Part shown: piece by piece, positions 2,792 through 51,026 of the stretch
Layout of the letters: each line of letters starts with the position of its first letter
How positions within the stretch are numbered: the first letter of the stretch is position 1
Translations under genes and position numbers: made by a program
IMG/VR virus record: IMGVR_UViG_3300034257_000006
Coordinates: 1-60,102 of that record
Reading direction: 5' to 3' (one strand)
DNA from: a virus
Taxonomy: Duplodnaviria; Caudoviricetes
DNA length: 60,102 nucleotides
Notes under the pieces: model-generated
What the model was told of the DNA's origin: nothing
Seen by the model: only the letters and a program-made list of their open reading frames with translations
The model's database searches: none

Positions 2792-3058
2792 TTATTCCCT
2801 ACTTCGATTTTTTGTTTTTTGTCGGTGCGTCCATGCGTGCTTCAAATAAATGCCCCACTCCATTGCAGCAGCGTAGGCTTCGTCTCGGTCAGTGAAACAT
2901 CCTTCCGTCGTTTCTGTGTACACAGGGATGACTGGCATTGATTCACCTTTCTTCGGTGGGACCGACAGCAGTCGTCCACCGATACGATGACCGCGATCGG
3001 TTAGAAGGTCGAATGATCCGTCACTCATTTCATTTACTCTGATTCTCACCTGCATCAT
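2792..3058 (-). CDS. Hypothetical protein
   Basis: Coupled ORF. Confidence 0.55.
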   Translation of the reverse strand: MMQVRIRVNEMSDGSFDLLTDRGHRIGGRLLSVPPKKGESMPVIPVYTETTEGCFTDRDEAYAAAMEWGIYLKHAWTHRQKTKNRSRE

Positions 3059-3492
3059 CGCACTCCGGCCAGCAGCACATCGCCAATAAACACCCGAAAC
3101 TCATCCACCGTATAAAAGCACAACCCAGTACTCGCTGCCAGATCCCAGCAGCCGACTTTCTCCCGCTCGTAAGTCACCCAGATCTTCAACATCTCATCCG
3201 GATCCGAGATCTTCATTGACGTCACCTTGCTCAGCACAATCGTGTTGTCCGCTGAGTAGTCCATCGCATTTCCGTCGCGCGGAAGCACCATGGCTCCTCT
3301 GTACCATATTCCAGAGAGCAACCGCCACACCGGATGCGTCGTGCCGTCGATCACAACGGCTATCTGTTTCACGCCGAGCTTCGAGATTACGTTCGTTGTG
3401 ACTAGCCGAGTGTGGCCTTGCCAGCAAACGCCGTTGCGGTCGATGTAGATGCCGGGAGCCCACACGATCATTCTTTTGGCGATGGAGGTCAT
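3055..3492 (-). CDS. Degenerate HNH-like protein
   Basis: VWRLL...VLPRDGNAMDYSADN parallels HNH_3 VHRLV...VxHxDGNxxNNxxxN with the His residues lost. Confidence 0.4.
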   Translation of the reverse strand: MTSIAKRMIVWAPGIYIDRNGVCWQGHTRLVTTNVISKLGVKQIAVVIDGTTHPVWRLLSGIWYRGAMVLPRDGNAMDYSADNTIVLSKVTSMKISDPDEMLKIWVTYEREKVGCWDLAASTGLCFYTVDEFRVFIGDVLLAGVR

Positions 3493-5052
3493 TGAACCAC
3501 AATCTGCATTTTTTCTGTAAATTTATCCGATAACTGAGACAGGTGTTGAAACACTTCTTTTGCCGTGTCCATGTCTCCGCAAACCATTACAAACGGAAGA
3601 TCGAAGCAGTGCCACTTTCCTGGCTGAATGCTTTGCGCCTGGGGCTGATGTCTTGCGTTCATGTATTCGACAAGTTCATCTGGAAACTGAACTCCAGATC
3701 GTCTTTGCATTTCGTCAACACTAAGATTCCCAAGCATAAACGCCATCACAAAAGCCCCCTCTCGAAGTCCAACACATAATCCTCAATCCGCTCAAACGCA
3801 TCCAGCACGATACGCTCCAGTTCATTGTAAAACCCTAAGGAGTCCATCTCCTCCCCATCGTCATCAAAAACCTTCAACTCAACAACCCGAGGCTCCGAGA
3901 TCTCCACCTGATACGGACGCGACGTATCACCATCCGCAATCTCCGAGATCGTCAACTTCCGCGCCTCACAACGATACTCAACTGTTGCCGTCCCGAAGAT
4001 GGCATCAGTGAATTGGAATTCTTCCCACCACCAGCGTCCAGGACGGATGCCTGTGCCTCGGTTTGCGTCTTTGCGATGCACTGCGAATGATGCCATGATA
4101 CTTTCTTTCAGCAATTAACCATGAAATGGATTCGATCTGGATAATCACCGCAGGCACACTGAGTCTGCCATTCGTCGCCTTCTTTTCGGATGACTTGAGT
4201 CCATCCGTTTGAAGTTCCTGATGCGTTCAGTGAATTGCAGACATCAAGGATCTCCTCATCTGTTGCATCGGCAACTGCGCAAACCTGCATTGAAGCGATT
4301 CCAGCGAATGGCCACGTGATTTCGACTCTGTTCATCATTGACTCCTTAAATTCCATTGAACGATTGCCAAAGCGGCGGCTCTTTCTTCCCACTGATCTTT
4401 GTCGCCGTCGCCAGCAGTTTGAATGCGGACTTCTGGTCCACTTGCTCCACACTCATCACAGAAGACTCGACGCCATCGAGCCTTCTGCGACTGTGACTCT
4501 TGAACTGTTACAGAACAGACAGTTTGATGGTGTCATTTTACGTTCTTAGTATGTGTGATAACCATAAGCTCACCTGCGAGCTTGGCGATAATAAATTCCG
4601 CATTGCGATCTGGCGCAGGAAGCCCAAGTCCCCTCAACGCATCGCTGATAATCCTGCGAGCATTCACCCACTCAGCTACTGCTTCTCCGTTTTTCACTCC
4701 GGCACCATCGCATTTCCACACGCTTCGGCGAGGTGCAGCTCTACTTCATGATCGGCCATCGGCTTGCCGTACTTGATGATCGAATCAACCATCCAGTCGT
4801 ACCCACAGAATCCCGACGACTGAAGTCGCAACTTCCGAGCCTGATTCGAGTTCAATTCATGAACATCGATCCCGGCACACCATCCGTCATCCCATGAGTA
4901 ATGGTATCGACCATGTTCAAGGATTTTGACGGCAGTCTTGATTGACTCTTTGCCGACGAACGACCGGATCGTCGCGTACTTGCGTCCTTCTCCGTACCAC
5001 TTCCCGTTCCACGATGGACAACCGGGCATACTGAGTGTGAATCCGAGCATCA
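3489..5052 (-). CDS. Run of small hypothetical genes (3489-3749, 3746-~4098, 4108-~4338, 4533-~4697, 4694-~5052)
   Basis: Abutting minus-strand ORFs with plausible protein composition. Confidence 0.55.
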
Positions 5053-5103
5053 TTTGAAAATTTCCCTTCGTTAAAACCATTCATCGACCACACCACCACC
5101 GAC

Positions 5104-5132
5104 ACTCTACCAATTAAACTACAATAAAGCAA
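5104..5132 (-). promoter_or_regulatory. Sigma70-type promoter
   Basis: TTGCTT-17 nt-TAGAGT in AT-rich intergenic gap. Confidence 0.45.
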
Positions 5133-5136
5133 CAAT

Positions 5137-6879
5137 TTATTCCGAAGATTTTTCCGCCCTTGCTAACCATCGTCCATAGAGTGGTCCTCTTCTGAACTGT
5201 TTTCGTTCAAAACCCAGTGATTCCAGCGTCTCGTGGATCTGTCGAGAATTTATTGTGCCACCGTATGACGACCGATGTCGCCGGCTGACTTCGTCGATCT
5301 TCACGAGGATCCACACGGCTTCGCCATCGAAGTAATACCCGGTCAGCGGATCATCCTTTTCGCGGATGTCTGTGAGTCCGCCACCGTTCGGCACGCACTT
5401 CATTCGACCTTTGAATGCGTGGCCTTTGTCGATATAGAGTTGCAGGCCAGTCATGAGTTCGTCCTTATTGCCGATCATCGCCAGCACAATGTCTTCTATC
5501 TGATCGGCGATGCCGTTTTCTTTTTTCTCTTCGACGTCGGCCATCTTCTCAAGGAACTCGCGCAGGCCACGGGTGATTCCGTTCTGTTTCTTCTTGTCGT
5601 TGTCCTTGCCGTTCCAGATCGTCTTCCAGTCCCACCAAACGAACGACTGATTCAGGGCGAACAGTCCATTCGTCTGCTGCTTCATTCGCAGCGCAAACGA
5701 ACCTGGAGCCATGAATTCTTTCGTATGCATCGACACTTCATGTTCGCCTACCATAACCTGAATTAAATCCTCGTCGCCCTTCGTGACGTACTTCGCCTTC
5801 CAGTCACACTGCCACTCATCAATCCGCTCAGAATCCTGCTGCGTATGATCCATCGAAGGGTCCGGAACAAGTCTGATCCCGTGTCTCTTCAGGTAAGATC
5901 CGAATGACCTGTCATCAGCCGCCGACTCAGGAGCAGTCAGTTTCTGCTTTGCTTCGATCTCTTTGAGGAACTCGCCGTACATGAACGTCCGACTCGACTC
6001 GAAGATCACCTTCACTTCGGCTTCTGTCTTCGGCGGTTCACAGACGAGCAGGTTTGCCCCGGCCAAGGCCATCCAGACGTTGTCGATCGCGTCCTGTTCC
6101 TCGATCCCGTTGATACCTCGGATCTGGAACTCGCGACGCCACAGATGATTCGCCTGAACCAGCAGGGCATTGTGTCTTCCTGGGTGTCGCACCTTGCCGA
6201 TCTGCGATCGGAAGCACTTCGCATCACCGTTGCCACTGCTCGAAACACCAGAGGCTTTCTCTGCCCACTTCTTGCACGCCAGATCGACGATATGTTTCGG
6301 AAGCGGAATTATCGGGATGTCATCCGGCGACATACCTGGGATCCACTCGTACTTGGCTCCATTCTGGTGGATCGATGGCGGCGCAACGGACTGTGTCTCT
6401 TTGCCACGACCACCGAACCGCATCTCCAGTCCGTTGACGGTGAGGCTCGCCTTACCGGTCTCCGGAAGATCCGGAGTCCATCGGTAGATTCGATGGAGGC
6501 TCTTACCCGACGTGTACGTTGGAGCTGCATACCCCTGCAGGATCAGGTCTGCGAACTCACGCCCTTCGGGAGTATCATCTTCGAGATCGACGACTGCTTT
6601 GTCTGCCGGGATCCCGTGACACGGACCAAGGACGATCCCGACGTTCCACGGATCCTGCCATTGCTCCCGAATAACTTCTTCATCCTGCGTCGCCGACTTC
6701 CCCCATGCCGAAGCGACGGGGTGCTTACCGATGGAACCTTCGCAGTCTTTACTGCCGCAGGAACAGGTTGTCGTGTTGCCACGGAAGATCGGGTAATGGA
6801 GACGGACAGGATAAAATCCCTGACGGGCCAGATCGACGACAGCATCGGCTACGGCAGAAGTCACTACGCGGCACTCCAT
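5137..6879 (-). CDS. Bifunctional DNA primase/polymerase (Prim-Pol, AEP) protein
   Basis: N-terminal CSC..C..GKHP, NVGI, VVDLE, LHRIY and VAPPSIH motifs; PriCT-like GRHNAL; no Walker A seen in the C-terminal half. Confidence 0.85.
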   Translation of the reverse strand: MECRVVTSAVADAVVDLARQGFYPVRLHYPIFRGNTTTCSCGSKDCEGSIGKHPVASAWGKSATQDEEVIREQWQDPWNVGIVLGPCHGIPADKAVVDLEDDTPEGREFADLILQGYAAPTYTSGKSLHRIYRWTPDLPETGKASLTVNGLEMRFGGRGKETQSVAPPSIHQNGAKYEWIPGMSPDDIPIIPLPKHIVDLACKKWAEKASGVSSSGNGDAKCFRSQIGKVRHPGRHNALLVQANHLWRREFQIRGINGIEEQDAIDNVWMALAGANLLVCEPPKTEAEVKVIFESSRTFMYGEFLKEIEAKQKLTAPESAADDRSFGSYLKRHGIRLVPDPSMDHTQQDSERIDEWQCDWKAKYVTKGDEDLIQVMVGEHEVSMHTKEFMAPGSFALRMKQQTNGLFALNQSFVWWDWKTIWNGKDNDKKKQNGITRGLREFLEKMADVEEKKENGIADQIEDIVLAMIGNKDELMTGLQLYIDKGHAFKGRMKCVPNGGGLTDIREKDDPLTGYYFDGEAVWILVKIDEVSRRHRSSYGGTINSRQIHETLESLGFERKQFRRGPLYGRWLARAEKSSE

Positions 6880-6902
6880 TTATGTGTTCAACGCACAGTG
6901 TA

Positions 6903-7229
6903 CTAGAGGCAGTAATGCCTATTGTATGAACCTGCTTCAACAAAAACGCCACACACTGGACAGTAGTGTGGCTGTTCATTCTTCGCAACCGTCTTTTCTT
7001 CTTCCACCATATCTTGTGGCAACGAAGGTATTGGGCACCAATGGGTAGGATCGCTTCCTCCATCTGTGAATGCGTCGTTGCTGTGCGTCTGCCACGGATT
7101 CAAAGGCCTGTGCTCTGGATCCCAGTGCCCCACTTCGCACCGAAGCGGCGTCGTCGTGTATCCACTCGGCCCAAACAAAAGTATCCACGTCCCACCCTTC
7201 GGCGCAGTTTCAATTGGCTGCAGATTCAT
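6903..7229 (-). CDS. DUF551-like phage protein
   Basis: LQPIETAPKGGTWILL...PTHWCPIPSLP; RBS AGGAG before ATG 7229. Confidence 0.75.
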   Translation of the reverse strand: MNLQPIETAPKGGTWILLFGPSGYTTTPLRCEVGHWDPEHRPLNPWQTHSNDAFTDGGSDPTHWCPIPSLPQDMVEEEKTVAKNEQPHYCPVCGVFVEAGSYNRHYCL

Positions 7230-7254
7230 CGTTATTCTCCTTCGTAAAACAACA

Positions 7255-7345
7255 ACATTACCCGCCATCCAAAAAACATTCAATAGTTTCATGGGAATTA
7301 TTCGACAATAGTGTTGACATCCTTTTGGAGAGATGCAATGCTTTG
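7255..7345. promoter_or_regulatory. Divergent promoter region
   Basis: Minus: TTGAAT-17-TAATGT (7283-7255); plus: TTGACA at 7314; strand switch point. Confidence 0.55.
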
Positions 7346-7423
7346 GTTTATTGGTGTTCCTGTTGTGTTGATTTGGTTCCTGAACGGGTTGACGTTTGGG
7401 TTTGAATTTTTGGAGAATGAGTG

Positions 7424-7636
7424 ATGAATCTGTATCTACTGAAACGCGATGACTATGATTACGACGAGCACGACGAAGCACTTATTCGTGCTGAAAGCGA
7501 ACAAAACGCAAGGAACATCGCAGAGAAGGAACTGACTGCGCCAAAAGATGCGTGGACTGAAGAGAAGGCAACTTGTGAAATTGTGACCGTTGATGGGTAT
7601 CTCGGCGTGGTTATTGAATCTTTTAATGCAGGTTGA
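7424..7636 (+). CDS. Hypothetical protein
   Basis: RBS GGAG; first gene of the plus-strand island. Confidence 0.7.
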   Translation: MNLYLLKRDDYDYDEHDEALIRAESEQNARNIAEKELTAPKDAWTEEKATCEIVTVDGYLGVVIESFNAG

Positions 7637-7656
7637 ATTTTTGGAGGATGAGTAAG

Positions 7657-7827
7657 ATGCTCGTAGTTTCTCGGAAGAACAGCGAAAAGATCATCATCAA
7701 CGAGAACATCGTTGTCACTGTGGTCGATATTGGTAGTGGACGCGTTCTCTTGGGAATCGAAGCCCCGAAGGAAGTGAAGATTGTTCGGTCGGAATTGGTT
7801 TTTCAGGATGGGCTCTGTGGAAAGTAA
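7657..7827 (+). CDS. csrA: Carbon storage regulator CsrA/RsmA family RNA-binding protein
   Basis: MLVVSRKNSEKIIINENIVVTVVDIGSGRVLLGIEAPKEVKIVRSEL matches the CsrA consensus including GIxAP..V.I.RxE. Confidence 0.93.
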   Translation: MLVVSRKNSEKIIINENIVVTVVDIGSGRVLLGIEAPKEVKIVRSELVFQDGLCGK

Positions 7828-8026
7828 TGCGAAACTTGCGGAAGCAATAGACAATGCCTGTAAGTCACTTCCGAGCGACTGTCATGTGCATCTGGTGATG
7901 GAGCAGTTCGCCGCCAACGTGCTCCTTGAGGTTGATGGCAAAGAGGTTGATTTTTCTTCGAATCGCGAAACACTGGCAGACACAATCAACGATGCGGTTG
8001 AGGCTGCGCAGGATCTCAACGGTTGA
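7808..8026 (+). CDS. Hypothetical protein
   Basis: Coupled ORF ending just before attC-1. Confidence 0.65.
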   Translation: MGSVESNAKLAEAIDNACKSLPSDCHVHLVMEQFAANVLLEVDGKEVDFSSNRETLADTINDAVEAAQDLNG

Positions 8027-8034
8027 GTGATCCT

Positions 8035-8120
8035 GCTGAACGCTGCCGCTAAAACGCGGCTGAGACAAATATAGTTTAATCTGACGGTCGGAAGCCGTCG
8101 TTTTCAGCGGCTTGTTCTGA
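8035..8120 (-). repeat. attC-like site 1
   Basis: Minus: TCAGAAC AAGCC GCT(G)AAAACG(A)CGGC...GCCGCGTTTTAGC GGCAGC GTTCAGC; two extrahelical bases. Confidence 0.85.
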
Positions 8121-8154
8121 CTCCGTGTCTTGTAGGTTCTATGGAGGTTATATC

Positions 8155-8520
8155 GTGAAAGGGTTCATTGAAGTTATCGGGTGGCTGTTCGCTGGTATCT
8201 TTGCAGTTGGGCTTCTCCTGGGCATTGGATGGGTCGTTCAAGGTAACGACTTTTTCATGTACCAGATGTTCGCTCCGAAGTACGAGAGCGTGCGGCGCGA
8301 AACGTTCGAACAGTCAAAGGCATTCAATCAGGGGATGATTCAGGAACTGCAGGACATGCAGTTTCAGTACGTCAAGGCCGCGCCGGAACACAAAGTCGCG
8401 TTGGCGTCGATCATCCTGCATCGCGTGGCAGATTATGACGAATCGAAACTTCCGACGGACCTGAGATCGTTTGTCTCAGGCTTGCGCCGGGAGCGATCCT
8501 TTACTGGAGAGAAAGAATGA
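8155..8520 (+). CDS. Membrane-anchored hypothetical protein (cassette 1, gene a)
   Basis: N-terminal hydrophobic helix; RBS GGAGG before GTG. Confidence 0.75.
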   Translation: MKGFIEVIGWLFAGIFAVGLLLGIGWVVQGNDFFMYQMFAPKYESVRRETFEQSKAFNQGMIQELQDMQFQYVKAAPEHKVALASIILHRVADYDESKLPTDLRSFVSGLRRERSFTGEKE

Positions 8521-9005
8521 GAGTGATTTTGGCGTTGATGACCTTGTTGCTTGTCGGATGCGAAATGGAAAAGAGCATCGACACTGTTCAACGAGAGCAA
8601 CAGGAAGTTCTTTTGAAAGAGGCAACGTCAGCAGTTGGAATGCCTGCGATTCACAATTTTCGCGAGCGAAAGATACTGAAGGACATTCTGGAACTTCGGG
8701 ATCAGGACGGACTGGTTACGTTCACGTACATTTTCAATGAACTGAATGGCACGCTGGTGTTCCTGGGTGAATCGATCGGCTACGGCATTCCTTACGCAAC
8801 GCAGTTCACGAACCCGGAGAAACTGGAGAGGGTTCATAAACTCGAAGCTCTTTACGAGGTCTTGCCTCAAGCTGATCCGAACGGCTTGTATTCTCCTGCG
8901 GCTGCGGAAGGAACGTGGATCTTGATGAAAGATCCAAAGGGAAGCGACGTGAAGCCGGTGTACGTTGAAGCCCGCGTCATTGTGTCGCCGTTCAGGCTAC
9001 TCTGA
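8517..9005 (+). CDS. Putative lipoprotein (cassette 1, gene b)
   Basis: Signal peptide with lipobox LVGC; YGIPYATQFTNP and PQADPNGLY motifs. Confidence 0.75.
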   Translation: MRVILALMTLLLVGCEMEKSIDTVQREQQEVLLKEATSAVGMPAIHNFRERKILKDILELRDQDGLVTFTYIFNELNGTLVFLGESIGYGIPYATQFTNPEKLERVHKLEALYEVLPQADPNGLYSPAAAEGTWILMKDPKGSDVKPVYVEARVIVSPFRLL

Positions 9006-9069
9006 TTGCTGGCATGGATGCCAAGCAACCGCTTGTGCTCACGCGAGGCAGGATGCCGGACGTGAGTAG

Positions 9070-9174
9070 TCAGAACGCTTGGCGTTTCTGGACCGCCTTA
9101 CATTTTTGAAAGAGATTCGATGCAAACGAAAACGGAAGAAACGAAGCCGGTTCCAGAACAAGCCATTGTTCACA
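9070..9174 (-). repeat. attC-like site 2
   Basis: Plus TCAGAAC...GGCGTTTCTGGACCG / CCGGTTCCAGAACAAGCC...GTTCACA; same two-bulge pattern. Confidence 0.8.
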
Positions 9175-9449
9175 CGCCTGGACCGTGGTTTACCCTGCAT
9201 GAAAGCTCAGCGATCGGAACAGGCGATATGACGATCGCCAGAGTGTACTGGTCGGAAGGGCGTAGTGACGCTGAGAACACGGCGAACGCTCGACTGATGG
9301 CAGCGTCACCAGACATGCTTGATGTGCTGAACAGGTTCGTCGCGTGGGACAAACGATACCCAAATAACACAATCCACTCCAAGGCTGGGGAGTGGCAACT
9401 TGATGAACTATTCAACGCCGCACGTGCGGTGATTTCGAAAGTCGTGTAA
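9120..9449 (+). CDS. HTPGPW-type phage protein (cassette 2)
   Basis: HTPGPW...ANARLMAASPDML motif; start codon inside attC-2 loop, TAA stop inside the next R box. Confidence 0.8.
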   Translation: MQTKTEETKPVPEQAIVHTPGPWFTLHESSAIGTGDMTIARVYWSEGRSDAENTANARLMAASPDMLDVLNRFVAWDKRYPNNTIHSKAGEWQLDELFNAARAVISKVV

Positions 9450-9508
9450 CGCTGCAAGTCTGCGGCGATTACATGGATGTCTTCGTCCGCAGCAATTGCT
9501 TGTTATGC
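9444..9508 (-). repeat. attC-like site 3
   Basis: Plus GTGTAAC...GCAAGTCTGCGGCGA / TCGTCCGCAGCAATTGC...GTTATGC; two bulges. Confidence 0.85.
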
Positions 9509-9528
9509 AGTTTTTTTAGGAGTGAGCA

Positions 9529-9897
9529 ATGTCTGGTATTCAATTCAGAGGCCGCAAGGATCACGAGCATTTAGATTCATCGTACAATTTGTGGGATGGC
9601 GAACATTTAGGAGACATCTCATCGTGGCATGCTGGTGATACCGTGGCTGTCTGTTTCGCGATCAGCAAAGAGCAAGAGAGTCTGATTCTCGACAACACTG
9701 AGTTGCCTGTCGGCAGCGGACTCGCCAGCGTGATGTGTGTTGTCGTTCGTCGCAGCCATTCGATCATCTGGAGGTCAGTTGGTCGGTTCGAATCGCTGAT
9801 AACGTGCTCAGTGCTGCTCGAAGCGGAGAGCGGACAATGGGAGGATGTGTTGAGGTACATCATATTCGGAAAGATGCCAGATCACTGGTCTGCATAA
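9529..9897 (+). CDS. Hypothetical protein (cassette 3)
   Basis: RBS AGGAG; stop TAA within GCATAAC. Confidence 0.75.
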   Translation: MSGIQFRGRKDHEHLDSSYNLWDGEHLGDISSWHAGDTVAVCFAISKEQESLILDNTELPVGSGLASVMCVVVRRSHSIIWRSVGRFESLITCSVLLEAESGQWEDVLRYIIFGKMPDHWSA

Positions 9898-9978
9898 CGC
9901 TTGGCACTTGTTGTCCGCGCGGAGTATTTTCAATTTCGAAGAACGTGGCACGCGGTCGGCAACGTGCCGTTGTTAGGG
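9892..9978 (-). repeat. attC-like site 4
   Basis: Plus GCATAAC...GGCACTTGTTGTCCGCG / CGCGGTCGGCAACGTGCC...GTTAGGG. Confidence 0.85.
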
Positions 9979-9986
9979 GGCTAGTG

Positions 9987-10301
9987 ATGCACAAGGGATT
10001 TAGGGACGCGATTCACGTTCCATTCGTCATGGTAACGTGCGGAGACACATTGAGGCCCGCGGAGAAGTGTTCACTGAGAGACGAAAACCAGTGTGTTCGG
10101 TGGCAAGGTGGAAGCCCTGATATTGAACCAATGTGGCACGGGATAGCCGATCCATTTCGGGAATCGGAAATACCTTCCGGAGAGGTGTTTCCGTTGTACA
10201 TTCGAAAGGAATGTTTTCACGGCCTCACGCACGATTTTCAAATTGAGGTTCACGACAGAGGCGGCACAGGCACATGCCATAGCGTTTGCGATATCTTCTG
10301 A
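9987..10301 (+). CDS. Hypothetical protein (cassette 4)
   Basis: RDAIHVP...GIADPF...LTHDF phage-type protein; AGGGGG of the R box serves as RBS. Confidence 0.7.
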   Translation: MHKGFRDAIHVPFVMVTCGDTLRPAEKCSLRDENQCVRWQGGSPDIEPMWHGIADPFRESEIPSGEVFPLYIRKECFHGLTHDFQIEVHDRGGTGTCHSVCDIF

Positions 10302-10305
10302 GTCC

Positions 10306-10375
10306 CCCTAACGCCGCGTGCTAACCGGTTTGGAGTGGCATGGATGCCTGTCCAAAGCCGGTGATTAGTGGGCCA
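10306..10375 (-). repeat. Degenerate attC-like site 5 / ORF-less unit
   Basis: CCCTAAC then bulged hairpin CTAACCGGTTTGGA / TCCAAAGCCGGTGATTAG; no closing GTT. Confidence 0.45.
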
Positions 10376-10390
10376 GTCGATTTGTGATTC

Positions 10391-10476
10391 GTTGAACGCT
10401 GCCAATCATTGGCAGCGGGGAAGATTTCGGAGAGTGGGCAGCGGTGGTCGCTGTCCAATGAATTGGCTTTTTATCT
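10391..10476 (-). repeat. attC-like site 6 with mutated R'' box
   Basis: Plus GTTGAAC...GCCAATCATTGGCAGCG / CGCTGTCCAATGAATTGGC...TTTATCT (TTT in place of GTT). Confidence 0.75.
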
Positions 10477-10489
10477 GCAGAGGTGGATT

Positions 10490-10705
10490 ATGGATGAGCG
10501 AGCAATATGGCTGAAGAGAGAAAACGACAACACGCTGACGGTTTCTGTCGAGGCTGGCGGCCAGTGGGTCGAGGTAATCCGAGAGCACGGCGATGGGCCA
10601 ATCAGTCACATCGTCGAACCGTCTGGAATCGAGAGGCGGATCAAAGAAGCTGCCACCGATTTCTCAGAAAAGGATTTGGCTGCATCTGGCGGATATGTGC
10701 GATGA
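10490..10705 (+). CDS. Hypothetical protein (last cassette-like gene)
   Basis: RBS GAGGTGG; stop overlaps the helicase start. Confidence 0.7.
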   Translation: MDERAIWLKRENDNTLTVSVEAGGQWVEVIREHGDGPISHIVEPSGIERRIKEAATDFSEKDLAASGGYVR

Positions 10706-12102
10706 GTGAACTCTGGTCGCACCAACCAAAAGCGATTTTATATCTGAACGAGCATGAAGCGTCGATGCTCGACGCGGCGATGAGCAGCGGTAAATCCTAC
10801 ATGTCAGTGCAGAACTGCAAGCACTGCGCTGCTCACAGAAACGCACGCACTCTGATTTTGTGCCCCGCTGCCGTTCGTTCTGTATGGAGAAGGGAGTTCT
10901 TTTTTCACGCACCAGATCAGTTCGACGTTGTCATTCTTGACGGCAAGCAGAACTCAGGAAAGAAAGCAGAACTGGTTTACGAGGCACTGCGACTTCAACA
11001 GTCGCATGGCAGGCCTCTGGTAGCCGTCGTGAATTACGAGTCGTTTTTTCTTGATCCTATCTGGAAAGTCCTGAACTCAGTTCTCTGGGATAAGCTGATT
11101 TGCGACGAGTCACATCGAACAAAGTCGTACTCCGCACAATGCAGCAAGCATGCATGGAAGATCGGAAAACGATCTGCTTCAAGGACCGGACTGACAGGTA
11201 CGCTGATGCCGAACAATCCAGGGAACGTCTTCAGTCAATATAGATGGCTGGACGAAAGGATCTTCGGTAAATTCTGGGGGGCGTTCAAGCAAGAGTACGC
11301 AGTGATGAGTCAATTCATTCCACATAAGGTCGATAAGTGGATAAACCTTGAAGAATTAAACCGAAAAGTGAACCTCATACGGTATCACATCCAGAAGTCA
11401 GTGCTCGTTCTTCCAGAGAAGCAGGACATCATAATCGAGGTGAACCTGTCTCCTGCCGGGATGAGGATATACCAACAAATGAGAAAAGAGTCGATCGCCT
11501 ACATCAAGAAGTCGATCGACGGACCAGAGACAGATGAACTGAAGACCGCGATCGGATCCAATGGAGCTGTCCAGTTCCTTCGCCTGCTTCAACTTTCACA
11601 GGGGTATGTCACAGACGACGAAGGCGACGAAGTAAACACAGACACAGAAAAACGCCGTGCATTACTGGACCTGATTCAGGATTGCGGAGAACCTGTCTGT
11701 GTGTACGGCTGGTTCCGTCACGATTTAAAATGCGTCGAGCGGTGTTGCGATATTTTGGGACTTCGGTACGGCGAGATCTCAGGTCGTCGCAAGGATCTTA
11801 CTGAGCACGCTACGATGCCAGACGATATCGACGTTATGGGCGTTCAGTGCAAATCTGGTTCTGCTGGCATTGACCTCACGCGAAGTCGAATCGGGATCAT
11901 CATGAACAGTGGTCTTCTGTCGCATGGAGACTTTGACCAAATGATCTCAAGGCAGGTAAGAACGAATCAGAAATCCAACGTAGTCTTTTATCATCTAGTG
12001 ACAAAGGGAACCGTCGAAACGAAGTTGATCGACGAACGAGGCCGTAAACGTGAAATCGTGGAAGTGTTGTTGTCCGAAATGAAGGAAGAGGAGGTGTTCT
12101 GA
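10702..12102 (+). CDS. SNF2-family (SF2) DNA helicase
   Basis: LWSHQ, MSSGKS Walker A, DESH, LTGTL, GIDLT and QMISRQVR motifs. Confidence 0.9.
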   Translation: MSELWSHQPKAILYLNEHEASMLDAAMSSGKSYMSVQNCKHCAAHRNARTLILCPAAVRSVWRREFFFHAPDQFDVVILDGKQNSGKKAELVYEALRLQQSHGRPLVAVVNYESFFLDPIWKVLNSVLWDKLICDESHRTKSYSAQCSKHAWKIGKRSASRTGLTGTLMPNNPGNVFSQYRWLDERIFGKFWGAFKQEYAVMSQFIPHKVDKWINLEELNRKVNLIRYHIQKSVLVLPEKQDIIIEVNLSPAGMRIYQQMRKESIAYIKKSIDGPETDELKTAIGSNGAVQFLRLLQLSQGYVTDDEGDEVNTDTEKRRALLDLIQDCGEPVCVYGWFRHDLKCVERCCDILGLRYGEISGRRKDLTEHATMPDDIDVMGVQCKSGSAGIDLTRSRIGIIMNSGLLSHGDFDQMISRQVRTNQKSNVVFYHLVTKGTVETKLIDERGRKREIVEVLLSEMKEEEVF

Positions 12103-19413: not shown

Positions 19414-20716
19414 TCAGTAGTTGTGTTCTACGGTGGTTCCTGGCTCTCCAGGCAGTCTAACAATACCCCAGTCGCGTGCTGTAAAATTGCGAGCGCCACT
19501 AAATATGCCTCCATCGCTGTGTCCACGTTTGCTTGTTCCGCCGCGCAAGGATCTTCCGGTGGATCGCGTGTCAGTCCATGAGACTTTGTGTCCGTTTGGT
19601 GTAGTGACTTCAATGCGTCCTGAAGTGATTGAGACCGGGTTTCCAGCAGTGTCATCAGTCGCCTGACTTTGGTTGTTTGCTGTTTCATGGTCGTGGATGT
19701 TCGCGATTTTTTTGCCATGCTCTTTTTGCTCCGCTTGAAGATTTTCGATGATCTTGTCTTTGGCTTCCATCTTATTGTCGTACAGCGACTGGAGATGATA
19801 TCCTATATTCCCAGACCAGAATGTTAGAACGATGATCATCCCTGCCAGAATTCGGCAATCAAACAGAAGCCTTCGCTTGTTTCCTGTTATGCCATCGTGA
19901 TAAATCAGCCTGGTCGCTGCCACACACGTTGCCAGGATGAACATCACACAAACGATCTGATATTCAACTCGCATCATTTTCTCAACGCCTCAATAATGTT
20001 CGGTATGGCAGATCCCAGCGCGAGAATGGCAGCTACTACAAAGACCATCCAAAATGCCTGACTCGCGTTCCGGCCTGAGATGTGAAATTTGCCTCCTGGA
20101 ACACGAAGGAACATTCTGTCGATTTCACGGTCGCTGTCGTGTTCATCGTCGTCCACCGTTGCACCTTTCACTGCTTTTGGCTGTCGTCCACTCTCTTCGA
20201 CATCGCTTCTGATCTAACGTCTCCAGCGTCCTGCCTTGCATCGCTCGCGTCAATTCGAGCACGGTTTTCAGCAATCGCTCCTGCGTTATCCTGTGCCTTG
20301 AGCCGCAGAGACTCCATGATCGTTTCCTGAAGCCCAACGATTTTCTTCTCCAGCGAATCAACCTTAGCTTCCAGTACACCCTCTCGCTTTTCACACGTAG
20401 TCAGAGCCAGTTTTACGTATTCGTGAGACTTCTCAGTCGAGAACCATAGCTTTCCGATCGCTGTCGTTAATGCCAATCCGATCGCAGACGCGATGACAAG
20501 CATCGTTGCTTCAGAAATCTCCATTGTCCGCACGCCTCACTGAATGACGAATCCAAAAACCTTCCAGCCAAGCAGGAACAACAGCACGAACATCAAGAAA
20601 CTTCCAGACAGCATGAATCGATCTACTGGCCGATCTGCAGGAGCTTTATGATAGAAGAATCCACCAATGAACATCCACAACAACATCAAGATCCAGAAAA
20701 CCAACCCTTTTGACAC
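19414..20716 (-). CDS. Four small membrane proteins (19414-19977, 19974-20171, 20168-20533, 20537-~20716); holin/spanin candidates
   Basis: One or two hydrophobic helices each, two with coiled coils. Confidence 0.5.
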
Positions 20717-21651
20717 TACGCACCTCCTCTCCGATACAACCACACGTCGCCATGCTGCACCATATTCAGTCCTTCTACTTGATGGAATGGGCTCGCTGCA
20801 ACACGAACAGACCTGAGTTTCGATGATAATTCAGCTAAAAGCGTAGGGTAAAGATACGCTGTTATGACTGTAGCTCGGGATGCATCGAAATTCCGGGCGT
20901 CTCCCTGTTCCACCGTAATCAGATGAGACAGCCCGGAATCATTGATTGCCTGACGGGCAACTGAGACTCGTGTGTGGTCCAGTTCCACACCGATTCCTCG
21001 GATGCCACGACGTGCCGCAGCTATCAGGATGCGTCCGTCTTCGCACCCCAGATCAGCCAGGACATCGTCAGATCGCAATTGCATAAGATCCAGCATCTGC
21101 TCAATGAGAGCGATTGGACACGGCTGCTGGTCGTCTGGGAGAGACGACTGATACGCCTGCATCTGCCTGCGATATTCAGCCTGTTTGGCTCGAATCGATC
21201 GGCACATGCCGCAGTTGCAGTTGCGATTGTACGTCTCAAGGTCGATTGTGCCCCATCCTGACCATTGGATGTAGCGGGATGGTGGCGACCTGTTTATTTT
21301 TGCCTGAGGAATCGACACGTTCTCTGGATATGTCGATTCGGACGACACGTCCCATTCGAATTCGTACGGGACGTGCGGAACCGTAAAACCGAATCGATGC
21401 TTACACTGCGCGATCGTCAGCACGTTCTCAGCAGGCCATCCGTTTTTGATGAACAACGCTTTCCGCGCAGGGCAGTTCCGGCACCATGATTCGCTGACGA
21501 TGTAGCGTGTCCGTTTCTTGACTTTTACCTGCTGCACTTCGGCAGGCTGAGCTACAGCATATCTTCCTGTCGGATGGAAGATCTGCATCCCATCCGAAGG
21601 CAGCATAGACACAGTAATCAGCAAATGCATGATGTGCAGCATCGTCTTCAT
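20716..21651 (-). CDS. CxxC domain plus class I SAM methyltransferase fusion
   Basis: SWCRNCP; LADLGCEDGRILIAAA, GIGVEL, GDA and TAYLYP motifs. Confidence 0.75.
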   Translation of the reverse strand: MKTMLHIMHLLITVSMLPSDGMQIFHPTGRYAVAQPAEVQQVKVKKRTRYIVSESWCRNCPARKALFIKNGWPAENVLTIAQCKHRFGFTVPHVPYEFEWDVSSESTYPENVSIPQAKINRSPPSRYIQWSGWGTIDLETYNRNCNCGMCRSIRAKQAEYRRQMQAYQSSLPDDQQPCPIALIEQMLDLMQLRSDDVLADLGCEDGRILIAAARRGIRGIGVELDHTRVSVARQAINDSGLSHLITVEQGDARNFDASRATVITAYLYPTLLAELSSKLRSVRVAASPFHQVEGLNMVQHGDVWLYRRGGA

Positions 21652-21653
21652 GA

Positions 21654-22460
21654 CTATCCCTCCTGAGTTGTAGGTAACGTCCAGAACGTATGAACGCCGA
21701 ACGTCTGCTCGAAAGTTTTGAGCGTCAAGTAAGCTCGTCCTTGCTGACCGTACTGAACACCCCACGAATTAGCCATGTCAAACACTTCTTTGCCAGCCAC
21801 GATGCAAAGATCGTCAACGCACACCGAATGATTCCCTCGCCCATTGTCAGCGCCAGCGATTCCATTGCTGTCTAATCGCTGAAAGTTACCGCCAGCATGA
21901 ACGGCGACGACACAGGGCCACTGCTTTGCAAGTGCCGTCCGAAGTCCTCGAATCGTCTTTACAGGACGCAGCTTGAAGCCTTTGTGCTTCGCTGCTGCGG
22001 CATCTGCACCGGCAGGCATCTGTTTCCGGTAGATCAGATTCGCCGGGACCAAGGATAGCGGTGGCGCGCCGTGTTCCTCTGCGACCTTTAATCCATCGGA
22101 CAACATGCTTCCGTTGTCCTGATTCCCATTCATCCATGCGTACATGTACGATCCGGATAACTTCTTCAGGCCATCACGGAATCCGCGTCGATAGCGACCT
22201 CTCGCAATGACACCGGAAGTTCCCCATCCATTGCATGAACCGTACGACAACTGATCGCACATCCATGTTGAATCGAACATCTTGCGAGAAGGTTTGCGAT
22301 TCGGATCTGTGATCGCCTTTCTGATTTCTTCGTCAGTCCATTCTTCCACCGCTCCAGGTGCTGCTGCAAACGCAGCAAGCATCCCTGTATCCGGAGCAAG
22401 TGAGCCAAGTCTTCGTGTGTTTCCGTTAATATCAACGATCTGCTCGATTTCGTCAGCCAC
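21654..22460 (-). CDS. Papain-like (C1) cysteine protease
   Basis: DQ..YGSC, GNHSV and ANSWG..YG..G catalytic motifs. Confidence 0.88.
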   Translation of the reverse strand: MADEIEQIVDINGNTRRLGSLAPDTGMLAAFAAAPGAVEEWTDEEIRKAITDPNRKPSRKMFDSTWMCDQLSYGSCNGWGTSGVIARGRYRRGFRDGLKKLSGSYMYAWMNGNQDNGSMLSDGLKVAEEHGAPPLSLVPANLIYRKQMPAGADAAAAKHKGFKLRPVKTIRGLRTALAKQWPCVVAVHAGGNFQRLDSNGIAGADNGRGNHSVCVDDLCIVAGKEVFDMANSWGVQYGQQGRAYLTLKTFEQTFGVHTFWTLPTTQEG

Positions 22461-23238
22461 CTGTAAGCCTCCCTACTAGCAATTTGAGTTCATCGAATGT
22501 TGCCGGAAGTGGCCCGCGATGAACTATGATGCCCGTCCCTTTGTCTGTGATGACAATCCCAGGAGCAGCACTATTGAGCTGTCCAATCGCTTTGACGCCT
22601 TCCGATTCAGTCGTAGCGATATCGTAAAGCCGATACTCACTGCCGGAATCAAGCAATTCATTCCACGCGACAAGTCCATTTAGAACAGTTGCGACAGGCA
22701 ACGACGTATTTTCGGAATCAGTGATTACTGACAGCCGAACATGAGGAACGACTGGAAAAGGAGGATCTGGATCTGGGTCCGGATCTGGTTCTGGTGGTGG
22801 ACGCGGCCCCATCACATTCAGCGTTCGCCTCACGCGATCAACGTCTGGAGTCACCAAATCCGCAACCTCAACCAATACGACACGCCCCTTTGCGACCGGC
22901 CTCACAAGCATGATGCACTTGCCGCTGTAGGTACGTTCCTCGAAATCTCCTGAGCCATCTGCGAACCGACTGAACACAGTCCACGGACCAACCTTTCGAG
23001 TAACGGCGACAACTCCAAGAGGAACAGACACAATCGAAAAATCCGTATCCGACTCAACGATATAGAGTCTGTCTTCTGAAAGATCCATTACTGGCATTGG
23101 TGCAGGAGGACCGACCGGAGAAGGCAACATCGGCCATCGGATTGACGGGGAGACTGTTGGAGACGGATCATCACCACGGCATGACAAGGAAGCAATCACA
23201 ATGATCGTTGCCCCGATAACAATGTCTTTGAGACGCAT
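22453..23238 (-). CDS. Exported Pro-rich protein, possibly a lipoprotein
   Basis: Hydrophobic N-terminus ending SLSC; GPRPPPEPDPDPDP linker. Confidence 0.6.
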   Translation of the reverse strand: MRLKDIVIGATIIVIASLSCRGDDPSPTVSPSIRWPMLPSPVGPPAPMPVMDLSEDRLYIVESDTDFSIVSVPLGVVAVTRKVGPWTVFSRFADGSGDFEERTYSGKCIMLVRPVAKGRVVLVEVADLVTPDVDRVRRTLNVMGPRPPPEPDPDPDPDPPFPVVPHVRLSVITDSENTSLPVATVLNGLVAWNELLDSGSEYRLYDIATTESEGVKAIGQLNSAAPGIVITDKGTGIIVHRGPLPATFDELKLLVGRLTGG

Positions 23239-23582
23239 TAGTCATCGTCTCCCAGTGCATGACCAGCAGCCAGTACAGCATTGATTGTTGGACCGTCAGC
23301 CTTCATAGCTTCGATCAACTTCGTCTCAGCAATCTCGTACAGATCAGCCCGTGATAATTTCGGAAAGCGTTTCCTGTCAGATCGTGACGCTTGCCTGTGG
23401 GCTTTGTTCGCAGCCTGCCGAGCCGCCGGAATGCAGTCGTTAACAAGGTCCGGGTCCATGCGACCTGTCGCCTCGTTGTAGGCCGCTCGCAACACATCGT
23501 GCGGATTTTCGCTCGACGTCTGCTGAAAACATTTTGCAATGATTGGGCCAAGTAGCCCGAGAATGATCGTGATCCAGTCCAT
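23238..23582 (-). CDS. Hypothetical membrane-associated protein
   Basis: MDWITIILGLLGPII N-terminus. Confidence 0.6.
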   Translation of the reverse strand: MDWITIILGLLGPIIAKCFQQTSSENPHDVLRAAYNEATGRMDPDLVNDCIPAARQAANKAHRQASRSDRKRFPKLSRADLYEIAETKLIEAMKADGPTINAVLAAGHALGDDD

Positions 23583-23680
23583 TTTAACACTCCTTCTGTT
23601 GAAAATAACCGATCCCCTCCCGGCAGTGGCGTCCCTGAGCTACAGCCGAAGGAACCGCAACCCAGCCTGCCGGGAGAGTT

Positions 23681-23956
23681 TCAGTCAGGGGAAACGCTTG
23701 TAACTATGTTTAACAACCCGAACGCGAATAGCCAACCACAAACTCCCGTATCCATGAAGTACGCCACAGGAATACCGATCCAGAAGCCACAACAGATCAC
23801 GCATTGGATTCCAGTATTTTGCCATGTGTCTTCTGGGTATCTGTCCGTTACCAACTTTCTGAGCCGCGCAAATAGACCGAACGGGCCATCTGTTCCTGAG
23901 AAAGAGTATGCGAGACCGAACGTGATCACGGCTGTTACAACATAATCGAACATCAC
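23681..23956 (-). CDS. DUF1360-like small membrane protein with CxxC
   Basis: DGPFGLFARLR...CVICCGFW. Confidence 0.7.
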   Translation of the reverse strand: MMFDYVVTAVITFGLAYSFSGTDGPFGLFARLRKLVTDRYPEDTWQNTGIQCVICCGFWIGIPVAYFMDTGVCGWLFAFGLLNIVTSVSPD

Positions 23957-24630
23957 CGTCTCCTCGATCCACCGGCACCATGTGCCATAAACGCCTTCTT
24001 CGATCTCCCCGGATCAAGCGCTGATCCGTTAGCCGTCGCTGTTTTCACTGTCGTCTGCGCAAACTTCGCCACGATGTTTTCTTTCCAGCCGGCCCACTTC
24101 AAGCCGTTGATCTGGTTTCCAACAATCTGTTGAGGCGGGATCAGATTCGAGTTCATAGAATGTCTAACATAGATCCAGCTCGGTTCGAAGCACGCTTCAA
24201 TGGTTCTGCCGACATGCGTGGAGTCATCGACGAACATTGTCGCTGAGACGATGTTGTCCTTCGATCTCCAGACCTTCAGTTTGCCTTCGTTGAAGATGTA
24301 GCCATTCGGAAAACTCAGCAGAGTATTCTGCTGAGGCTCAGGAATCTTTCGCAGCGTCTCGATGAACGTGGGGCACAGGAAGTCGTCGTCGCCGACTTCT
24401 ACTTCGATTCGCGGTCCAACAGGGAATTTCAGTTGCGACGCCATGAAAGGAGAGAACGCCTCTCTCCTTGCTGTCCATCTCGGATCCATTGGAGACTGGT
24501 CCATAGCAACAAAGAACGCTGTGTCCGTCTGATTCTTCAGAGACTTAATCAGAGTGTTCTGAGTTATCGCAAGTCTGTAGCGACTTGAGTCGTGCTCGAA
24601 GTATTCAGACCTCACTCGTATGTAGATCAT
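23953..24630 (-). CDS. Putative glycosyltransferase (GT-A, rhamnosyltransferase-like)
   Basis: SLKNQTD..F, GDDDFL and WIYVRH motifs. Confidence 0.6.
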   Translation of the reverse strand: MIYIRVRSEYFEHDSSRYRLAITQNTLIKSLKNQTDTAFFVAMDQSPMDPRWTARREAFSPFMASQLKFPVGPRIEVEVGDDDFLCPTFIETLRKIPEPQQNTLLSFPNGYIFNEGKLKVWRSKDNIVSATMFVDDSTHVGRTIEACFEPSWIYVRHSMNSNLIPPQQIVGNQINGLKWAGWKENIVAKFAQTTVKTATANGSALDPGRSKKAFMAHGAGGSRRR

Positions 24631-25456
24631 ACCGTTCCTTCGGCTGTGGGTAGAGTTTCAATAAATCCCCCGGCTCCGCGCCGATCCATTTTCGACACTG
24701 CCTCGTGCTTGATCCGCCACGAGGTGCATCGTGTCCCATCGACGAGTTCGATACACCTGCTGGCAATGGAGACCAGTGTAGCACCAGACTCGGTGAATAG
24801 TGCCAGATCTCTTTGCCCATGTCTACCAATGTTCTACTAATCCATGTATCGACGGCTTTGCGTTCCCATGACTTCGTGTTCTTGTCCTTCGCCTGAGTGT
24901 GGGAGCCTTTCCATGCGTCGATCGATTTGTGGTAAACGAGTTCTTCAAGGACGTGTCTCGGAAACACAAGAGCCAGTGATCCGACGAGGTTGTTCGATCG
25001 CGAAACGAACGTGCCGTTCTCTCGGATGATCTTTGCTTTGAACAGACCGTTGCCTGATGCGTACTGCGCGATGTTCGGGCAGTATAGTGAAACGCAGCCA
25101 CAGTTCTCGGAAGGCCACAGATCTCGCTCCAGAAGAGGATAGATTCCGTTAGCGAACAAAGCGTCGTCTTCGCAGATGAGGAACGTGTCGGCCATGTCTG
25201 TGATTTCGAGGAGATCACGTCCGGCTTGGATCCAGTTACCGAAATTACCGAAGACACCTTCTTTTGACCACGCGAAAGTGTTGAGTTCCGTCTCAACTGT
25301 TGGTCTCTGCACACACAGATACTCCGTTCTCCGAATGCAGCAACCCGGCTCGCAGAACAGTATCGGCGCAACGCCGAGTCCGGCGAGCGAACTGACGACT
25401 TCTTTGTATGTCGGTTTTGGGCGTGGGGCGACGATGATGCCAATTGCGAGTTTCAT
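24605..25456 (-). CDS. Putative GT-A glycosyltransferase
   Basis: LICEDDA, VSLY and PSLVLH motifs. Confidence 0.7.
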   Translation of the reverse strand: MKLAIGIIVAPRPKPTYKEVVSSLAGLGVAPILFCEPGCCIRRTEYLCVQRPTVETELNTFAWSKEGVFGNFGNWIQAGRDLLEITDMADTFLICEDDALFANGIYPLLERDLWPSENCGCVSLYCPNIAQYASGNGLFKAKIIRENGTFVSRSNNLVGSLALVFPRHVLEELVYHKSIDAWKGSHTQAKDKNTKSWERKAVDTWISRTLVDMGKEIWHYSPSLVLHWSPLPAGVSNSSMGHDAPRGGSSTRQCRKWIGAEPGDLLKLYPQPKERYDLHTSEV

Positions 25457-25674
25457 GATGCAGACTGCTTGCAAAGATGAACAGTAAACATTGGATCTGA
25501 TCTAATGCTGACGAGGTATTCGTTTAACTTTTCGTTCTTAATTTTCCGCATTTCATACCCTGCAGTGTATCCAGCCATCCAATGCGACGACGCTGTTTCA
25601 TCAATCGCACTGGGTTGAATCGCCGCTGAAAATCCATTGGACCATTCTTTGCCAATTTCATACTTGGGCCTCAT
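25453..25674 (-). CDS. Hypothetical protein
   Basis: Short coupled ORF. Confidence 0.5.
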   Translation of the reverse strand: MRPKYEIGKEWSNGFSAAIQPSAIDETASSHWMAGYTAGYEMRKIKNEKLNEYLVSIRSDPMFTVHLCKQSAS

Positions 25675-50653: not shown

Positions 50654-51026
50654 GCGTGTCTCTCCTCGACAAAGTACGCGGTTTCCTGTTTTCCGTTGAG
50701 TACAGTGTCAACGGTTCTTCCCTCAAGTGATCCCGACGGAGTCATCCAGTCCGAGGTATACGGATACTTACTGTTGATGATCCGAGGGTGAACATTCATT
50801 TTCCCGACGGTCGCGAAGAACCGCTCTTTGGTCGTCTGAATCATGGCGAAACCTCGCAATCCAGTATCGAGGCCGCAGTGTCGATGATGACCTGGCGAAC
50901 GATGTCGGCCTGGTCGTCGATTTCCTGCTCAGAGCGTTCTCGTTCGTCGGAGTCGCGTTCGCGCTGTAGTTCCGATAGTTCGTTGAAGAGTTTTCGAAAT
51001 TCGTCGCGAAGTTGTTTTACGTCCAT
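50650..51026 (-). CDS. Two small hypothetical genes
   Basis: Coupled ORFs. Confidence 0.5.

Follow-up and report, generated by a model that had tools for sequence, protein, structure and literature searches.

Mirror-image gene cassettes in a probable integrase-less attC cluster of a virulent-type phage

Introduction

In the canonical integron cassette a promoterless open reading frame (ORF) lies on the top strand and is followed by its attC site. What should be made of a phage operon in which hairpins resembling attC sites stand before the genes? Such a locus occupies positions 8035-10476 of the stretch of DNA analysed here, called the window: all 60,102 bp of the IMG/VR virus record IMGVR_UViG_3300034257_000006, a whole virus genome with direct terminal repeats and an estimated completeness of 100%. 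The phage that carries it is of virulent type and comes from peat. Five plus-strand genes alternate with long imperfect hairpins in the interval from the stop of a 72-aa ORF (8026) to a helicase gene. A first-pass annotation, made from the sequence alone, had read the hairpins as attC sites and proposed that every cassette gene is antisense to the attC polarity.

We conclude that 8035-10476 is probably an integrase-less attC cluster (CALIN) in an early rightward operon, composed of mirror-image cassettes that would be exchanged at AA/C (the slash marks the crossover point throughout) and read from a phage promoter. As defined by Cury et al. (2016, PMC4889954), a CALIN comprises two or more attC sites that share a strand, lie less than 4 kb from one another and have no intI close by. 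The window has three matches to an attC covariance model and one further match to a structural descriptor, all on the plus strand within 2 kb, and no intI.

attC-type sites in the window

Six hairpin sites, S1 to S6, were delimited. S1-S4 start on the plus strand with NNNNAACGCT and end with TTGTTNNNN; the last two are degenerate. Descriptor and covariance model (R1) are described below.

8035..8120, plus strand: attC-type site S1, bottom strand on plus, upstream part of cassette c1; descriptor score 21; R1 21.4 bits, E 0.029
9070..9174, plus strand: attC-type site S2, bottom strand on plus; descriptor score 20; C16 and T23/24; no R1 match; its left box is also the far box of c1
9444..9508, plus strand: attC-type site S3, bottom strand on plus; descriptor score 21; R1 24.0 bits, E 0.0088
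9892..9978, plus strand: attC-type site S4, bottom strand on plus; descriptor score 21; R1 23.3 bits, E 0.012
about 10306..10398, plus strand: far box of cassette c4 (CCCTAA/C, box complementarity 7/7) and degenerate hairpin S5
10392..10476, plus strand: degenerate site S6, beginning AACGCT, with GTT changed to TTT; the minimum-energy fold favours two local hairpins

DNA folds of S1-S4 show a closing helix of AAC with GTT, then a small internal loop, then the stem. If positions are numbered from the GTT box's 3′ end, S1-S3 carry single-base bulges on the 3′ arm of the plus strand, C at 16 and T at 23 (T23/24 in S2), and a stem of six pairs separates the two; in S4, C16 is accompanied by a T.T mismatch at 23. 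The sites are 65-105 nt long with invariant AAC and GTT, which places them within the attC criterion of 57-141 nt and RYYYAAC/GTTRRRY boxes. They follow the box consensus only in part, GCATAAC/GTTATGC fitting well and TCAGAAC/GTTCTGA less so. The extrahelical bases expected of attC, at 16 and 23/24 with 6 bp between them and facing 5′-AAC-3′ from the other arm, are found on the plus strand. S5 has its extra bases mainly on the 3′ arm and no closing helix of AAC with GTT; neither the descriptor nor R1 detected S5 or S6.

The descriptor required boxes pairing at 5/7 positions or more, a bulge at 16, a six-pair stem, and a bulge or mismatch at 23/24. With the bottom strand on plus, S1-S4 reach scores of 20-21, four matches on one strand within 2 kb. 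Background at a score of at least 20 was 0.43 matches per window in 100 dinucleotide shuffles (maximum 3); unrelated bacterial loci totalling 653 kb gave 5 matches, or 0.46 per 60 kb. S1-S4 are thus more than chance, and chance is excluded as their source. Two other descriptor matches in the window, at 30068-30151 and at 54440-54499 on the minus strand, were rejected as chance, lying inside coding sequence where R1 is silent; one of the two appeared only when a three-bulge mode was added.

Because the descriptor had been tuned after the window sites were seen, R1 was built without them. IntI genes above the curated cut-off were located in bacterial genomes, and 20 cassette-side regions were fetched. 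These gave 55 matches of at most 92 nt as training candidates, of which 38 short ones were aligned. Four rows misaligned by MAFFT were dropped (L150:3220-3276, L152:775-836, L158:1698-1772 and L161:2863-2933), and R1 therefore represents 34 bacterial IntI-adjacent attC bottom strands. Long Vibrio-type sites, which the first rigid descriptor had missed and whose minimum-energy folds were too variable to call the arms, were later found by R1.

Run over both strands of the entire window with filters off and a limit of E≤10, R1 gave exactly three matches, S3, S4 and S1, all on the plus strand, full length, and at the same coordinates as drawn by hand. In the 653 kb of control bacterial loci it gave none at E≤1. 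The bacterial bottom-strand consensus is yCTAACGCC...TTGTTAG, and the window plus strand reads alike. Among nine distinct phage sites, in an alignment fitted to R1, both sides of the inner helix changed in 7/7 pairs; the covariation score was 0.624 against 0.174 in shuffles, and was reached by 0/500 shuffles.

A complete integron was not found: there were no matches to TIGR02249 (integron integrase) or PF00589 (tyrosine recombinase) in the whole window genome, and a Pfam scan of 90 window ORFs gave no recognisable site-specific recombinase. attI and Pc are not recognisable without intI.

Polarity of the cassettes

Bottom strands of attC have extrahelical bases at 16 and at 23 or 24, six base pairs from first to last (Nivina et al., 2016, PMC5027507). 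According to the same source, these bases face 5′-AAC-3′ from the other arm in the bottom strand; in the top strand they share its arm. The bulges of the window sites are on the 3′ arm of the plus strand, opposite AAC, so by this rule the plus strand is the attC bottom strand. The first-pass annotation had placed extra bases in the right arm of the plus strand, C and then T in the first three sites, and had suggested folding both strands as a check; the folds bear it out. Its reading of the minus strand as AAC followed by AAGCC, AATGG, AAGCA or AACGG holds in the sequences, and the G:T wobbles that it thought would favor the plus strand in S4 are there, two on plus versus none on minus. Fold energies of plus versus minus were -19.8 versus -18.6 kcal/mol for S1 and -14.1 versus -12.9 for S3.

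R1 matches in related phage loci, introduced below, have the same orientation. At E≤0.1 there are ten in the window and in relatives L085, L086 and L001, scoring 20-37 bits, and every one is on the local coding strand. A phage-adapted class of cassettes, as the annotation had supposed, gains support from this recurrence in four records. The canonical arrangement was absent from all four window cassettes and six relatives' cassettes, where the ORFs are on the bottom strand and attC is upstream.

Genuine arrays gave the opposite result at the same threshold. In the integron of Shewanella phage M16-3, 9/9 R1 matches were opposite the annotated cassette genes, as was the single match (1/1) in its CALIN; the integron of Vibrio phage Va_90-11-286_p16 gave 12/12 opposite, and the CALIN of Tetrasphaera phage TJE1 gave 3/3 opposite, these being the three attC sites described by Qi et al. 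For bacteria we used the 20 IntI-adjacent regions, where 46/48 descriptor matches (score at least 20) were on the strand predicted to be bottom from the orientation of intI. An interval between sites was called when the longest ORF of one strand was at least 1.5 times the longest of the other; 36 intervals were canonical, one inverted and eight ambiguous, making 36/37 callable intervals canonical. A gene on the bottom strand is rare in ordinary integrons of the sampled bacterial class. The coding (plus) strand of the window array is supported as the attC bottom strand, with attC preceding the gene in each cassette.

Two annotated genes of the Vibrio phage integron control (29527-30195 and 33878-34138, one a methyltransferase) are on the opposite strand in an otherwise uniform array. 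Reverse-oriented genes do turn up here and there in genuine arrays.

Cassette exchange among relatives

Among 50,697 named phages, none matched 7300-10800 by blastn; a helicase-alignment scan of metagenome contigs yielded 29 related loci. Two of these loci, L085 and L086, have helicases 61% identical to that of the window and attC-type sites on the coding strand downstream of the helicase. R1 gives these sites 34-37 bits, and the plus strand folds lower in energy in 3/3 cases; site a of L085 has three bulges, 3 bp apart.

The flanks of these two loci are 98.9% identical over 2051 nt upstream and 99.9% identical over 922 nt downstream. Between them, L085 7278-7612 and L086 2034-2590 form one replaced block, which starts right after GCATAACGCTCC and ends right before ATAAC. 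It contains a hairpin body and then an ORF, in L086 a Methyltransf_11 protein. The gene is followed by a lone half-box and no hairpin, and this half-box co-varies with the upstream GTT box, GTTATGC with GCATAA/C and GTTATCC with GGATAA/C. Since the replaced block consists of an attC body, an ORF and the first bases of the next AAC box, the exchanged unit has attC first and gene second, with its crossover in the left AAC box. As read from the aligned sequences, the unit is C-attC-gene-RYYYAA, with the crossover in a left AAC box that would be cleaved on the bottom strand. This is direct comparative evidence that phages of this lineage exchange such cassettes. The annotation's proposal that each cassette carries its attC upstream of the gene is upheld on two lines of evidence, one from structure (the bulge geometry, with R1 matching on plus only) and one from this block.

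L001 belongs to a 100% complete genome (G001) and has three attC-type sites on the minus strand, which is the coding strand of its leftward operon; its array ends in a lone half-box, ACATAA/C. PF00589 gave no matches in G001 or in a second relative genome, G002, so that with the window there are three (near-)complete genomes of the lineage with no detected integrase. attC-type sites were absent from G002 (locus L003) and from 27/29 metagenome relatives, the exceptions being L085 and L086.

The GTT box of a site pairs with the far box, beyond the gene, at 7/7 positions in 7/8 cassettes compared by script, and with the near box usually at 4-5/7. In the window, GTTCTGA of S1 is 7/7 complementary to TCAGAAC at 9070-9076, GTTATGC of S3 to GCATAAC at 9892-9898, and GTTAGGG of S4 to CCCTAAC at 10306-10312. 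The exception is cassette c2, whose GTT box fits the far box with a 1-nt indel. Two further L001 cassettes, read by eye, gave 7/7 (site Y) and 4/7.

Other relatives fill the equivalent slot differently. The closest, L075, has a helicase 76% identical to that of the window and no cassettes, and its slot (6703-6890) holds an ORF of Gly/Ser/Trp-rich repeats (GSG.GSG.W). In L003 the variable slot (2819-6950) has other genes, with a repeat, ATCAACAGCGG, right after several stops. The repeat at times forms a hairpin's left arm, and neither descriptor nor R1 finds it attC-like. One L001 cassette gene (730-1003, minus) has a 67% identical copy at G002 40672-40938, where it is a normal member of an operon and has attC on neither side.

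Cassette genes

The five genes of the array are as follows.

8155..8520, plus strand: cassette c1 gene a, 121 aa with a membrane helix; GGAGG ribosome-binding site; phrog_26268 at 1.9e-4
8517..9005, plus strand: cassette c1 gene b, 162 aa, lipoprotein-like; phrog_24725 at 1.7e-32; 3260 homologues; 66 loci in many phyla
9120..9449, plus strand: cassette c2 gene, 109 aa; residues 18-107 match phrog_1273 at 5.4e-14
9529..9897, plus strand: cassette c3 gene, 122 aa, an ORFan; AGGAG ribosome-binding site; TAA stop inside the GCATAA/C box
9987..10301, plus strand: cassette c4 gene, 104 aa; weak matches to phrog_17232 and phrog_11912 at 3e-4; GGGGG ribosome-binding site

Ribosome-binding sites precede all five genes. 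That the real ORFs are on plus, as the annotation had it, is supported by PHROG or homologue matches for c1b and c2, and the minus-strand ORFs of the cassette intervals (69-100 aa) have no such support. A search for c3 homologues found none except itself, and scans of viral contigs with the c2 and c3 proteins gave distant partial matches only, with no attC sites.

Hairpins and genes are tightly joined. The gap from hairpin to gene is 8-34 nt, or else the ATG lies within the loop. At 5/10 sites the ribosome-binding site and start codon are in the terminal loop of attC (window 9070-9174; L085 7266-7356; L086 2022-2110; L001 1356-1448 and 1613-1703), and there the 3′ arm of attC encodes the first codons of the gene. 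In the window this is S2, whose loop contains the ribosome-binding site and ATG (9120) of c2; the first 17 residues of c2 are encoded within S2 and its PHROG match starts only at residue 18. A TAA stop lies within the far box in 7/10 cassettes, the c2 stop for instance being inside a GTGTAA/C box.

The two c1 genes are a conserved pair, a c1a homologue standing directly upstream of a c1b homologue in bacterial locus L052. Across loci L007-L072 the two-gene module (8155-9005) is 50-80% conserved over very distant phyla, which by record titles include Patescibacteria, Bacteroidota, Acidobacteriota and Bacillota. The c1b family showed no association with attC sites in its 66 bacterial loci; the single descriptor match among them (L052) is inside coding sequence and was rejected.

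Alternative explanations

Several observations weigh against an attC cluster of mirror-image cassettes. Position 16 is C in all four window sites where the usual base is G (C is also present at this position in some bacterial attC sites), and the spacer between the R and L boxes is 2-3 nt (CT against T in the folds, GCT against TT in the sequence) versus the usual 5-6. Energy differences between strands are small, 0.7-2.1 kcal/mol, and the minus strand of S2 folds slightly better (-17.4 versus -16.6 kcal/mol). The plus strand has a region-wide excess of G (GC skew +0.14), so purine skew and G:T counts are not independent evidence of polarity. S2, which has the longest loop, was missed by R1; the descriptor was written after sight of the window sites, and it picked the training set of R1. 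The bacterial baseline comes from one class only and from a crude longest-ORF rule. Two of the five cassette genes, c3 and c4, lack homology support, their coding status being judged from ribosome-binding sites and ORF length. Finally, four peat-metagenome runs, one of them perhaps the region's source, have contigs that contain the region or parts of it (in two runs, more than half of the sampled words), and in these contigs, a weak test since it covers contigs only, there were no excision joints, variants or excision products. The listing of runs that contain the region included none of RNA.

Four other readings were considered. The hairpins could be attC look-alikes that serve another single-strand hairpin recombinase of phage or host, as a parallel phage-borne cassette system of convergent geometry. 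We regard this as unlikely. It would suit the C16 and short spacer of the window sites, the three lineage genomes with neither IntI nor another tyrosine recombinase, and a polarity that in all ten R1 matches is useless in an integron; it must also explain why a model of IntI-adjacent sites only gives the relatives 34-37 bits, at least as much as genuine sites, and why the boxes (TAACGC...TTGTTA), the places of the bulges and the point of crossover all follow the canonical pattern, and it finds no candidate recombinase family among the 90 window ORFs scanned. Improbable, too, is that the sites are relics or module boundaries, with ordinary homologous recombination at short boxes between co-infecting phages and no site-specific recombinase acting today. 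Mosaic phage genomes with short conserved sequences at their boundaries are a familiar phenomenon, and such mosaicism would fit the GCATAACGCTCC and ATAAC common to the L085/L086 boundaries, the decay of the two rightmost window sites and the lack of excision joints in contigs. However, the right boundary has just five identical bases, the single-array insertion in L001 terminates in a lone half-box, and the 7/7 co-variation of GTT box with far half-box in 7/8 cassettes marks a crossover within the box rather than one next to it.

We think it highly improbable that the hairpins are RNA or transcription-level elements only, such as leaders, processing sites, CsrA-binding platforms or terminators. 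An RNA role alone leaves unexplained the invariant AAC and GTT, the bulges at 16 and 23, the co-variation with the far-end box and the cassette replacement. A terminator scan listed only an inner fragment of S1, no T-run follows S1-S4, and Rfam gave no matches over 6800-11000 at E≤1. The position of the hairpins in the 5′ leaders of plus-strand genes, the start signals in the loop at half of the sites, the CsrA-like gene just upstream and the GGA-loop hairpins in the same spacers do speak for such a role, which could be additional to recombination rather than an alternative to it. To the canonical polarity, with the minus strand recombinogenic and each gene followed by its own attC, we assign next to no probability. 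As in ordinary cassettes, an RYYYAAC box follows each gene, often with a TAA stop; complementarity of the gene-flanking boxes alone fits both readings, and S2 folds 0.8 kcal/mol better on the minus strand. Yet the bulges would then be on the wrong arm, and R1, a bottom-strand model, matches on plus only. The block replaced between L085 and L086 includes the upstream hairpin body and ends at the lone half-box with no hairpin after the gene, and the same holds in L001; this unit agrees with the bulge-based polarity, and the canonical reading is excluded on that account.

A possible route for cassette movement and expression

If the locus is a cluster of mirror-image attC cassettes, each would read on the coding strand as C, the attC bottom strand, a ribosome-binding site or ATG, the gene, and RYYYAA. 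The gene would be antisense to the attC top strand, and attC would serve as its 5′ leader. Insertion and exchange would proceed by site-specific recombination at AA/C in the 5′ box of the plus strand, which corresponds to the canonical cleavage point of the bottom strand. The recombinase may be a host integron integrase acting in trans during infection. Section 3.4 of Qi et al. (2023, PMC9892861) reports that attC sites of virulent phages are recombined by IntI1. According to Loot et al. (bioRxiv 10.1101/2022.09.11.507474), IntI inserts cassettes at 5′-GWT-3′ sites in genomes, and excision can use nearby sites.

Transcription would come by read-through from an operon promoter, for which the candidate is the following.

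7314..7319, plus strand: TTGACA, a -35-like hexamer heading the rightward operon and part of a putative early promoter

The same hexamer is at the equivalent place in relatives L001, L003 and L075. A scan with the promoter consensus did not list TTGACA at 7314 because the -10 is weak. Hairpin and gene leave no space for a promoter between them, so the cassette genes would have to be read through from the phage promoter; placed in a bacterial integron, they would run against Pc.

The TAA in the far box of 7/10 cassettes and the ATG in the hairpin at 5/10 sites suggest how such cassettes might be made, by capture via the TAAC at the end of the next gene. A resident attC would recombine with the TAAC (the TAA stop plus C) of the gene that follows, and that gene would be picked up. 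The L001 cassette gene that is an ordinary operon gene free of attC in G002 is in line with this model. Put more broadly, an attC that landed with its bottom strand on the coding strand of a phage operon might capture the next gene in this way and leave as a circle. The result would be a phage-only pool of reverse-polarity cassettes, expressible in phage operons, silent once caught by a bacterial integron, and shuffled by the host integrase as a private system of the phages. We offer this as a tentative scenario, possible and rather doubtful. For the polarity itself we can suggest that the bottom strand would fold more easily if it is both on the lagging-strand template and the non-template strand of transcription; the lagging-strand template has been linked with higher excision (PMC13108822). 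Phage genes of this polarity may also stay silent if a host integron captures them.

Comparison with known systems

Clusters of attC in virulent phages are already known, as are scattered, reverse-oriented, promoter-bearing cassettes in chromosomal integrons. The phage CALINs of Qi et al. (2023, PMC9892861), among them TJE1, resemble the window in having short ORFs between attC hairpins and no integron integrase in the phage. Methyltransferase, carried by the cassette of one relative here (Methyltransf_11), is a function found there too. The attC sites of TJE1 are found by both R1 and the descriptor. In the TJE1 and Shewanella phage arrays, however, the bottom strand is opposite the genes, whereas in the window and its relatives it is the coding strand, attC comes first, and start codons can lie in the loop.

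With canonical integron cassettes (PMC5027507), the window sites share AAC and GTT boxes, extrahelical bases at 16 and 23/24 that are 6 bp apart, a variable terminal loop and lengths of 65-105 nt. They also share the crossover at bottom-strand AA/C and a cassette-end box that complements the cassette's own attC box. Unlike them, the window has its genes on the bottom strand, C16, a 2-3 nt spacer, no attI, Pc or intI, and a need for phage transcription. Reverse cassettes of chromosomal integrons, for example toxin-antitoxin cassettes (PMC13108822), likewise have an ORF antisense to the array, and account for 1/37 intervals in our bacterial sample. As that source presents them they are scattered and have their own promoter, whereas in the window every cassette is reversed and no promoter space is left between attC and gene. 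Insertions at attG or 5′-GWT-3′ sites (bioRxiv 10.1101/2022.09.11.507474) are alike in placing cassettes outside integrons with bare AAC or GTT junctions, comparable to the lone half-boxes of L001 and L085/L086. They were shown experimentally for canonical cassettes in bacterial chromosomes, not for phage genomes or reverse polarity.

In the literature searched we found no phage lineage with all cassettes reversed; that search did not cover the tables of all 17 phage CALINs in Qi et al., which may hold such arrays. Nor did the literature searched contain attC as a 5′ leader, start codons in the attC loop, stops in the recombination box, or a swap that defines such a unit. The finding bears on the origin of cassettes and on their near-uniform polarity. 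Should a host integrase drive the exchange, phages would be using the bacterial integron machinery to shuffle accessory genes such as the methyltransferase cassette. Surveys of attC that assume the order gene, then attC, would then mis-assign cassettes of this kind, and neighbor-gene capture through a TAAC stop would be a testable model of cassette genesis.

Operon and genome context

Around the array, family scans and ORF calls identified the following features, together with terminase and portal genes elsewhere in the window genome.

5137-6879, minus strand: PrimPol
7657-7827, plus strand: CsrA-like protein
10490..10705, plus strand: 71-aa ORF after S6, with a GAGGTGG ribosome-binding site and overlapping the start of the SNF2 helicase
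10702-12102, plus strand: SNF2 helicase

The 71-aa ORF has no family match, and no homologue in the relatives.

Short hairpins with a GGA loop are scattered in the spacers of the array (9011-9022, 9047-9057, 9472-9479 and 10337-10348), with two copies of GGCATGGATGCC, one of GGCAGGATGCC, and ACATGGATGT capping S3. The window contains eight copies of the motif CATGGATG where 2.8 would be expected, each on whichever strand is transcribed locally. We take the GGA-loop hairpins to resemble CsrA binding sites, and the CsrA-like gene is just upstream of the array.

Genes towards the genome's right end encode a decapeptide/pentapeptide-repeat protein, an HNH_3 endonuclease and a RadC-like JAB protein (59222-60046 and 57694-58257; 51017-51679). 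On the minus strand, 20716-30133 is a gene cluster; its products are four proteins with methyltransferase domains, a radical SAM protein, a papain-like protease and a glycosyltransferase of two domains.

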